From an uncultured bacterium (GTDB lineage: Bacteria > Chloroflexota > UBA5177 > JANWHV01), in NCBI GenBank assembly GCA_963729625.1, contig CAVSOU010000010.1, forward strand, positions 864,001 to 928,000: a stretch of 64,000 nucleotides of DNA, in the 5' to 3' direction. This document shows positions 53,357-55,106 of the stretch, piece by piece (within the stretch, counting starts at the first letter, position 1; the number at the start of each line of letters is the position of its first letter). A program made the position numbers and the translations under genes. The notes under the pieces were generated by a model. It made no database searches and was not told the DNA's origin. It saw only the letters and a list, made by a program, of their open reading frames with translations.

Positions 53357-53659
53357 ATGGACGAGCAGCATGAGAAGACCCAGGACGATGTCCGTGCGGC
53401 GGTCGCGCGCATCCTAACCGCAGCGCACGGGAGGACGTCGTCGATCACGGAGTGCGGCCGCGAGAACATGCGTACGGTCAACCGGCTTTCACGCATCATC
53501 GCACTTCGGCATGTCGCAAACGACAAGACGTTCCGACACAACCTCGCCCGTTACCGGTCAGAAGCGCTCGAAGAAGATATCGTGATCGGCGCGCGCCGCG
53601 AGGGAAACGGAGTGTGGTCGCTCGTGGCCGAGCTCGTACCCCGCCAAGAACCATACTGA
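53357..53659 (+). CDS. Hypothetical protein (100 aa)
   Basis: ATG after GGAG and a plausible composition; no recognised motif. Confidence 0.45.
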   Translation: MDEQHEKTQDDVRAAVARILTAAHGRTSSITECGRENMRTVNRLSRIIALRHVANDKTFRHNLARYRSEALEEDIVIGARREGNGVWSLVAELVPRQEPY

Positions 53660-53817
53660 GCACGAGCCTTCGGGCAGCCATCGACTCCGTTCGCGCCCCA
53701 AGGACGCAGCGAGCGTCGCCGCGGATTCGTGCCTTTCCAGTCCCAAATGCCATACGAGCCCGGTTGTGGGCACCGGGCTCGTATCGGGGCGGTCGCCAGG
53801 AATATGGACCTGTGCCC

Positions 53818-54876
53818 TCATGCGAGAGCGTCAAGGAGATTCTCCCGCACCGCGGATATGGCCTGAATGATTGACTCATCGTTTGAAGCTGTCGCGCCCT
53901 CAATTCGCTTGCACCCATGCAAGACAGTCGAATGATCGCGCTCGAGCTCGCGGCCGATACGTGCGACCGTGAGACCGGCATCCTCCCGAAGCAGGAACAT
54001 GCCAATCTGGCGCGCCTGAGAAATCGTTGCTTCACGTTTCTTGCTCAACAGATCCTCTTTGCTTACGCCAAATTCAGCACAGACCGCACGAAGAATAGTC
54101 TCCACGTCACCGCGCACGGGCGCGTTCTGAGCTTGGCGTAACAGGTCGCAAAGAACACTCTTCACAATGGTGGCGCCGACTACCGTTCCACGCGGGGCAA
54201 GGTGCGCGCAGCGGCGGACCGCGGTCTCAAGCTCGTTCACGCCGCCTGCGGTCCGGTGAGCCAGAAGGTGCAGGGACTCTTCCGTGAACCAGGTCTGAGT
54301 ATATGAGGCAAATGTGCGCGCAAGGACGAGACGCGTACGTAGGCTGGGCTTACCAATACGCACGACCTGCCCCGAAAGCAGGAACGACCGAAGTCGCTCA
54401 GACAGGTCCTTAATCATCGCTGGGTCGCCCTCGCCGCTGAGCACAACCTGGCGCCCGCTGTCGCGCAGAGTCTCGATAGTGTACGCAAGATCTTCGAGGA
54501 CCGCTGCTCGGCCGGCCAACACCGGGAAGTCGTCCACAAGCAGCGCGTCCACTGAACGGTAGCGGTCACGCACTGCTTCGGCGCGGCGTTGCCGGATTCC
54601 GCTCGTGAGCTCCTGGCTTACTGTCTCCGCAGGGATGTACAGCACGTTGTGCATACCGGGTATCAGGGAAATCTGCTGTGCCATTGCCTTCAGTAGGTGG
54701 GTTTTTCCCATCCCGGGTGAGCTCTGAAGATAGAGTGGGTTGTACGTCGTTCCCGGCGACTTTGCGACATTCCAGGCGGCACGATACGCCAGTAGACTCT
54801 CCGGTCCAAACACGAACGAGGCAAAAGAGTAACGCGGCGGTTGCCCTGTATTTAAGTGCCTGTGTGTCGCAAGCAT
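53818..54876 (-). CDS. DnaA paralog (AAA+ domain III plus DNA-binding domain IV, no domains I/II)
   Basis: YSFASFV, YNPLYL, PGMGKTHLL, LLVDD, RLRS, ARQIGM, RDHSTVLH. ATG at 54876 lies 7 nt after AGGAGG. Confidence 0.9.
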   Translation of the reverse strand: MLATHRHLNTGQPPRYSFASFVFGPESLLAYRAAWNVAKSPGTTYNPLYLQSSPGMGKTHLLKAMAQQISLIPGMHNVLYIPAETVSQELTSGIRQRRAEAVRDRYRSVDALLVDDFPVLAGRAAVLEDLAYTIETLRDSGRQVVLSGEGDPAMIKDLSERLRSFLLSGQVVRIGKPSLRTRLVLARTFASYTQTWFTEESLHLLAHRTAGGVNELETAVRRCAHLAPRGTVVGATIVKSVLCDLLRQAQNAPVRGDVETILRAVCAEFGVSKEDLLSKKREATISQARQIGMFLLREDAGLTVARIGRELERDHSTVLHGCKRIEGATASNDESIIQAISAVRENLLDALA

Positions 54877-54953
54877 TCTTGCCCTCCTACCTAATTCAGA
54901 ACCTTGCACACTCTAGCAGACAAGGCCGGGGTCCACAACCGCGCTTCCCCTGC

Positions 54954-55106
54954 TTATCCACAGCCACGAGACACACTGTCTCCACAACCGTTCATGGGTA
55001 GTGAGCACGCCTTATCCGCCTCCCAGGGGTGTTTATCCGCGTGCTATCCACTGTTATCCACATGGATCCACAACTTATCCACGAAATTGTGGCAAAGTTA
55101 TCCCCC
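54954..55106 (+). repeat. Cluster of DnaA boxes (TTATCCACA and variants)
   Basis: Perfect boxes at 54954 and 55054. Variants at 55012, 55033, 55044, 55064, 55075 and 55098, plus an inverted variant at 55088. Confidence 0.85.

Follow-up and report, generated by a model that had tools for sequence, protein, structure and literature searches.

A conserved DnaA paralog without domains I and II and its phased DnaA-box array in Chloroflexota: a candidate modulator of replication initiation

The known controls of the replication initiator DnaA come from a few model bacteria and comprise Hda/RIDA, datA, DARS, SeqA, YabA, Soj, and SirA. Hda (HdaA), the RIDA factor, is an AAA+ protein related to DnaA; it targets DnaA instead of initiating replication, and it has no domain IV. 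HdaB resembles domain IV alone. HdaB, found in Alphaproteobacteria, is a small DnaA-derived regulator of initiation (10.1101/712307). An engineered Escherichia coli DnaA reduced to domains III and IV binds and opens oriC in vitro, and N-truncated DnaA is described as not viable and as giving no support to replication (PMC5448010). A review (PMC5742627) assigns functions to individual residues of E. coli DnaA: ATPase activity, RIDA, and DDAH require Arg334, whereas initiation complexes form without it; head-to-tail oligomerisation in the presence of ATP depends on Arg285; contact with the single-stranded DUE is made by Val211 and Arg245; and Arg399 and T435 are required for box binding. No description of a family of DnaA paralogs without domain I was found among the titles and opening lines of abstracts listed in searches of literature outside subscription journals.

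The window analysed here, the whole stretch of 64,000 nucleotides from an uncultured Chloroflexota bacterium (assembly GCA_963729625.1, contig CAVSOU010000010.1, positions 864,001 to 928,000 of the forward strand), contains a gene for a short DnaA. The protein shares domains III and IV, the fold, Walker A and B motifs, and the box-reading residues with canonical DnaA. Unlike canonical DnaA, it lacks domains I and II, has an Asn at sensor II and SGE at sensor I, and carries an apparently diverged single-stranded-DNA-binding motif; in the window copy the Arg finger is a Phe, and the protein belongs to a long separate branch. Its domain content is that of the engineered E. coli truncation, but the short DnaA is natural, conserved, under selection, and has additional changes in its AAA+ domain. 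In contrast to Hda it possesses domain IV, and in contrast to HdaB it keeps the whole AAA+ domain, a domain-IV-only protein being encoded separately on contig C17. The assembly (G000) comprises 5.41 Mb in 21 contigs and is 87% complete with 5.2% contamination; G001–G004 denote four other genomes of the genus. The features of the locus, in window positions, are:

53818..54876, minus strand: coding sequence for the short paralog of DnaA, 352 aa and a stop codon
54127..54837, minus strand: AAA+ domain III, residues about 14–250, with Walker A K58/T59, Walker B D115/D116, sensor I S147-G148-E149, box VII R161...F165, and sensor II N214
53821..54105, minus strand: domain IV, the DnaA-box-binding helix-turn-helix, residues about 258–352, with conserved R289, D314, H315, T317, and H320
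54883..54888, minus strand: Shine-Dalgarno sequence AGGAGG, 6 nt ahead of the ATG
54910..54938, minus strand: inferred promoter, drawn from invariant columns of a four-genome alignment, with a putative -35 element TTGTGG (54933–54938), a 17-nt spacer, and a putative extended -10 element TGcTAGAGT (54910–54918)
54954..55106, plus strand: array of eight DnaA boxes, all on the plus strand, 153 bp, with starts at 54954, 55012, 55033, 55044, 55054, 55064, 55075, and 55098

The initial annotation described a 352-residue reading frame with its own AGGAGG and ATG that begins at domain III; it gave no strand, and the frame is on the minus strand. The translation, the Pfam assignments, and a HMMER alignment to DnaA of Bacillus subtilis (8btg, E-value 1.4e-49), which begins at B. 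subtilis residue 112, agree on this architecture. Only 13 residues precede domain III, and the ATG and GGAGG are invariant across four orthologs in the four-genome alignment. The Pfam models Bac_DnaA (PF00308, residues 14–171, 130.5 bits) and Bac_DnaA_C (PF08299, residues 258–325, 85 bits) both match above their cut-offs. The NCBIfam DnaA equivalog TIGR00362 scores 263.9 bits, below its cut-off of 343.9, with a match that spans only profile positions 102–436. The protein is not Hda, as had been argued from its domain IV: the Hda profile TIGR03420 reaches 51.2 bits against a cut-off of 194.8. Helicase-loader profiles are also below their cut-offs (IstB 17.2 versus 24.1 bits, DnaI 26.5 versus 228 bits). 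The AlphaFold2 model, computed from a 49-row family alignment, has a pLDDT of 86.4 and is disordered at residues 1–10 only. A structural search with this model returned DnaA for all of the best fold matches, 8btg, 3r8f, and 1l8q among them, and domain III of the model superimposes on 8bv3 with a TM-score of 0.91 on the target.

The 382-bp gap upstream of the gene is occupied by DnaA boxes, and no domain I can therefore be hidden there. A search of the genome with the DnaA_N profile matched the two full-length dnaA genes and one weak place on C17, and nothing near the short gene. A split gene or a lost N-terminus was rejected on these two grounds. Reading of the family sequences revealed no conserved N-terminal clamp-binding motif.

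Contigs from RNA libraries (two runs of one study) cover positions 53798–54066, the 3' part of the gene, at 95–99% identity and provide a weak hint of expression; stretches without such cover carry no meaning. Thirteen sequencing runs match the window, each with a small share of the sampled words (at most 0.15), and for this reason no habitat or strain is claimed.

Orthologs of the short DnaA, each of 352 residues, are present in G001, G004, and G003 with identities of 90, 78, and 77%, respectively; none was found in G002, which is 83% complete and divided into 720 contigs. Nei-Gojobori dN/dS ratios are 0.044, 0.068, 0.115, and 0.031 in the four ortholog pairs with unsaturated dS, two of the six pairs being saturated and given no ratio, and the orthologs align without indels. 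The short DnaA is under strong purifying selection. It is also better conserved within the genus than the canonical DnaA of the type encoded on contig C7, for which the identities are 86% in G001, 77% in G002, 66% in G003, and 64 and 74% for two fragments in G004.

Beyond the genus, a protein search retrieved a tight group of proteins of about 352 residues with 51–100% identity and a second group of 354–397 residues with 35–42% identity. Both groups lack domains I and II, and some of their members are named 'DnaA/Hda family protein [Chloroflexota bacterium]'; the sources are Chloroflexota-labelled and metagenomic. Maximum-likelihood trees unite both groups in a single clade (SH-aLRT 100) with a long stem of 0.93–1.13 substitutions per site, placed outside both the canonical DnaA clade of the host and the clade of a class-wide second paralog. 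Long branches meet in the first tree, and the outside position of the short clade is therefore provisional. When a clade-2 protein was compared with 301 genomes of the phylum, a sample that includes the unpublished G018 and G226, its best matches were the short genes of this genus; clade-2 members were absent from the sample, and a contig scan with the same protein gave only five weak, unrelated loci.

The motif states were compared across 23 sequences of clade 1, including the window copy, and 39 sequences of clade 2, with residue numbers of E. coli DnaA mapped onto the family by motif alignment. HMMER alignment to 8btg confirmed each state proposed for the window copy. Walker A (SSPGMGKT) and Walker B (LLVDD) are retained; sensor I reads SGE in place of SSD in B. 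subtilis; box VII reads RLRSFL in place of RLRSRF, so that the Arg finger is F165; and sensor II reads GVNELE in place of NIRELE, with the Arg replaced by N214. In clade 1 the Walker A Lys and Thr and the Walker B acids are kept in 23/23 sequences, sensor I is S-G-E in 22/23, and sensor II is Asn in all 23. The Arg finger is Arg in 22 of these 23 sequences, and the window copy alone has Phe, its codon being TTC where orthologs have CGG, CGC, or CGT. Arg-finger loss is thus private to this genome, and the Arg-to-Asn change at sensor II is a fixed trait of the clade. The description of the protein as catalytically degenerate therefore needs correction, as it combines two distinct changes: orthologs share the loss equivalent to R334 throughout the clade, but not that equivalent to R285. 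Capping of DnaA filaments through a missing Arg finger, which had been suggested, cannot be the conserved mechanism of the family, because the loss is confined to this genome.

Clade 2 has a different pattern. Its Walker A Lys is present in 39/39 sequences (62/62 over the two clades), sensor II is Arg in 38 with one gap, and the finger position is Arg in 35, His in three, and a gap in one. The second Walker B acid is Asp in 23 of the 39, Gly in 14, Asn in one, and Glu in one. Domain IV had been described as well conserved, and the residues aligned with R399, D433, H434, T435, and H439 are kept in the window copy and invariant in all 23 + 2 + 39 members. As judged from these residues, the family appears to keep box reading and ATP binding, with hydrolysis residues apparently lost by different routes in the two clades.

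Substitution of the single-stranded-DNA-binding positions V211 and R245 had also been proposed. The V211 equivalent (H position) is Thr in the window copy and in 23/23 clade-1 sequences, compared with Ile in the canonical DnaAs of the same genome, which bears out the first part. The R245 equivalent is Ala, but it is Ser in the canonical DnaAs of the genome and Gln in B. subtilis, and this position is consequently not diagnostic. The canonical motif GKExTQEEFFHTFN (alignment consensus) is replaced by GR(T/A)AVLEDL in the short DnaA, and the B-region has diverged. The short DnaA may lack the ability to hold single-stranded DNA.

Upstream of the putative -35 element, the eight boxes of the array read TGTGGATAA in the direction of the gene. 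Two are perfect TTATCCACA, and the remainder share an ATCC core but deviate around it by one or two mismatches. Consecutive boxes are spaced at 58, 21, 11, 10, 10, 11, and 23 bp. The array is the densest box cluster in the 5.4-Mb assembly, with eight boxes compared with five in the runner-up and a genome mean of 0.445 boxes per kb. It is kept in G001, G003, and G004, where the 21-bp positions of the boxes are unchanged. Five to six of these positions show no variation over the four genomes, and their surroundings have diverged to a mean column identity of 64%. Clustered, phased initiator sites beside a gene are also found in autoregulated dnaA promoters, datA-type clusters, and iteron/Rep modules. 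The array differs from these in that all eight boxes share one orientation at 10–11 or 21 bp, in that there is no unwinding element, and in its tie to a paralog without the helicase-recruiting domain. No AT-rich unwinding element was found, since the GC content is at least 0.50 in every 100-bp window of the intergenic region, and a scan for consensus sigma-70 promoters and terminators of the region returned none.

The phased and conserved array, which the initial annotation touched on only by naming adjacent boxes, is the strongest functional clue at the locus. Its position at the promoter of the gene suggests that the short DnaA regulates its own expression, that the canonical DnaAs control the gene, or that both are the case. 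Among 20 metagenomic clade-2 loci, several of which are near-duplicates, seven carry at least three boxes in the 500 bp ahead of the gene, most of them facing the same way; one carries two, and 12 carry no more than one. These 12 loci, together with a second short paralog in G001 that has no array, indicate that array and gene are not inseparable.

The genes within 5 kb of the short dnaA are metabolic. On one side these encode an aminotransferase and a serA-like 2-hydroxyacid dehydrogenase; the other side has a DD-carboxypeptidase gene and two MaoC-like genes. There are no replication, par, or rep genes nearby, in line with the absence of dnaN and similar genes remarked on in the initial annotation. 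A 100-aa reading frame (53357–53659, plus strand) without a Pfam match separates the serA-like gene from the end of the short dnaA, and G001 has a different 121-aa frame at this place. In G003 and G004 the short dnaA occupies a different chromosomal neighbourhood.

Searches with PF00712 and PF02768 found no dnaN in the 87%-complete assembly, which therefore probably lacks the dnaN region. With dnaN missing, this gene could not serve as a marker for oriC, and GC skew is weak. The dnaA gene on C11 is near a cumulative-skew minimum. The array locus was considered as the chromosomal oriC and disfavoured for want of an AT-rich stretch and of a skew extremum at C10:918 kb, a verdict that is not decisive because the skew is weak overall. 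A plasmid origin of the short DnaA was ruled out by the absence of close plasmid relatives among the matches listed: 59 records of a plasmid database match the protein, and none of the 25 listed exceeds 33.5% identity. The annotated matches among these 25 are canonical dnaA genes, mostly on very large records.

A second box cluster was observed on contig C8 (G000:C8:206882-206965), where trmD and a GDP-mannose dehydratase gene enclose five boxes in both orientations together with a patch of 35% GC. All four other genomes of the genus keep a cluster downstream of trmD, and an AT-rich patch accompanies it in G000, G001, and G002. In G003 and G004 it shares a contig with the short dnaA and is located about 5 kb upstream of that gene. 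This cluster may be oriC or a DnaA-regulated site.

Two full-length dnaA genes are present elsewhere in the assembly, at G000:C7:296180-297688 (502 aa, plus strand) and G000:C11:898395-899921 (508 aa, minus strand). The short DnaA is therefore a true paralog, as had been supposed. The two full-length proteins have canonical motifs (GLGKT, LLIDD, TSD, RLRSRF, NVRELEG, and RDHSTV), are 61% identical to each other, and form a genus-level pair with orthologs in G001. Few DnaA boxes are located near their genes. No Hda-type protein was found in the genome with the Pfam DnaA ATPase model.

Further DnaA-type genes were recorded in this genome and in the phylum. At least two DnaA-matching places occur in 15 of 16 genomes of the same class and in one of 20 from other classes, a tally that includes the unpublished G018; nothing beyond such counts depends on the unpublished genomes. 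The class-wide second full-length paralog is represented in G014, G019, and G008 by open frames of 529–570 aa whose N-terminal extension is rich in Cys and similar to a zinc ribbon; it has RNHSTV instead of the usual RDHSTV, canonical AAA+ motifs, and its own clade in the tree. The domain-IV-only protein of 205 aa (G000:C17:168264-168881, plus strand; PF08299, 41.3 bits) is encoded between a HAD hydrolase and an aldo-keto reductase, is syntenic in G001, and has matches in G002, G003, and G004. The second short DnaA of G001 (G001:C12:1629226-1630284, plus strand, 352 aa, 51% identical) is apparently of the P0025 type. The Arg finger and the residue that aligns with Arg281 are both lost in it, whereas the sensor II Arg is retained, and it has no upstream box array. 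DnaA-like frames in other families include one of 380 aa (G014:C1:7923-9062), which forms a very long branch and has a Glu aligned with Arg281, and one of 369 aa (G136:C55:175869-176975) with fully canonical motifs, which may be frameshifted or truly short. A 293-aa frame at G000:C10:150653-152141 on the plus strand has a weak match to the Bac_DnaA ATPase model and a GTGKTH P-loop, overlaps the preceding 244-aa frame on the same strand, and looks like a helicase loader of the DnaC/DnaI type.

The reading favoured here, to which we assign a probability of roughly 0.4, is that the short DnaA modulates DnaA-dependent initiation, probably as a brake, and that it is an autoregulated, ATP-locked box binder and not an initiator. 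Without domains I and II, the protein would bind canonical DnaA boxes through its intact domain IV. It would also bind ATP, because Walker A and B are kept, and probably would not hydrolyse it, as Asn takes the place of the sensor II Arg in the whole of clade 1. Most likely it would occupy the phased array in front of its own promoter, resulting in autoregulation, although the canonical DnaAs could be the main occupants. Since its box specificity is in common with that of the two canonical DnaAs, the short protein would vie with them for box sites, including the origin, or enter the complexes that they form there. The lack of the helicase-recruiting domain I and the apparently diverged single-stranded-DNA-binding motif suggest that the net effect would be a modulation of initiation, most likely a damping. 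The analysis establishes the architecture, the motif states, selection, the family, and the array with its conservation, and from these we infer that the protein binds DNA, stays locked with ATP, regulates its own gene, and influences initiation. The suggestions of the initial annotation that it cannot unwind an origin and that it inhibits initiation are predictions of the same kind.

The window copy, being without an Arg finger, would be confined to one end when DnaA oligomerises head to tail. In most members of the clade the Arg finger is retained, which would make full oligomers possible, and the protein might even act positively. A predicted complex of canonical domain III, short domain III, and ATP has a score of 0.32, compared with 0.00 for the best control; of 157 solved complexes 116 reach the mark for this score, as do 2 of 215 mismatched pairs, but at values of 0.60 or under only 18 of the 157 do so, along with both mismatched pairs. 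At least 85% of contacts are shared between runs, and the partner has a pLDDT of at least 83. The prediction gives weak support to such contacts and may reflect memory of solved DnaA filaments. It is an unlikely extension of the brake reading that the short DnaA and its array make up a self-contained, ATP-locked switch, in which a dominant-negative protein would co-assemble with the canonical initiators and block helicase loading.

It is possible, but rather less probable than a brake on initiation, that the short protein is a DnaA-derived transcription factor, which would act through domain IV and ATP-dependent oligomerisation on its own promoter and on a regulon of promoters with boxes and would have no direct role at the origin. 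DnaA itself is a transcription factor (PMC12112137). The intact domain IV, the promoter-proximal position of the array, the absence of replication genes nearby, and other small intergenic box clusters in the genome, for example downstream of trmD, are all consistent with such a regulator. However, it would read the same boxes as the canonical DnaAs, so that some interference with them is hard to avoid, and the gene is about 5 kb from the conserved trmD-linked cluster in G003 and G004. The array could also belong mainly to the canonical DnaAs, as a datA- or DARS-like site for DnaA handling, with the short gene controlled by DnaA or aiding the cycling of its nucleotide state. Clustered boxes of one orientation outside the origin do resemble datA-type loci, which depend on head-to-tail DnaA contacts (PMC5742627), and the canonical dnaA genes have few boxes nearby. 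Yet short genes and arrays are found together in both clades, although these are just 35–42% identical to each other, which speaks for a link of the array to the protein. A site of this kind is considered improbable.

Initiation at an origin of its own, in which the upstream phased repeats would act as iterons for a Rep-like short DnaA and define a secondary origin or replicon, is slightly more improbable again. The directly repeated boxes with their 21-bp phasing, immediately upstream of the gene and in the densest cluster of the assembly, fit such a module, and several DnaA-type genes are present on different large contigs. Domains III and IV are moreover able to open oriC in vitro (PMC5448010). 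Against this stand the GC content of at least 0.50 in all 100-bp windows, the missing domain I, the apparently diverged single-stranded-DNA-binding motif, and the lost sensor II Arg, to which the loss of the Arg finger is added in the window copy. The locus has no par or rep neighbours and no GC-skew extremum, its plasmid matches are distant among the 25 of 59 records listed, and its chromosomal neighbourhood differs in G003 and G004. The score below the equivalog cut-off (263.9 versus 343.9 bits) and the two catalytic arginines lost in the window copy would fit a duplicate that is decaying or has no function, or a sole dnaA distorted by the assembly. It is, however, extremely improbable, given dN/dS ratios of 0.03–0.12 without indels in four orthologs, which are far from a value near 1, the contact residues of domain IV that are invariant in 62 members (23 + 39), the conserved start codon and Shine-Dalgarno sequence, and the two full-length dnaA genes elsewhere.

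The name 'DnaA' or 'DnaA/Hda family' in Chloroflexota annotations hides at least four architectures: the ordinary full-length protein, the full-length protein with a Cys-rich N-terminal extension, the short protein, and the domain-IV-only protein. If the switch formed by the short DnaA and its array is real, it would be a protein-based brake on initiation in a Chloroflexota lineage without a detected Hda-type protein, and ATP hydrolysis would have been lost independently, by different routes, in two clades. A conserved natural DnaA that still reads boxes and binds ATP, but is without the helicase-recruiting domain and a hydrolysis residue, would differ from the known controls and represent regulation of initiation by a defective copy of the initiator.
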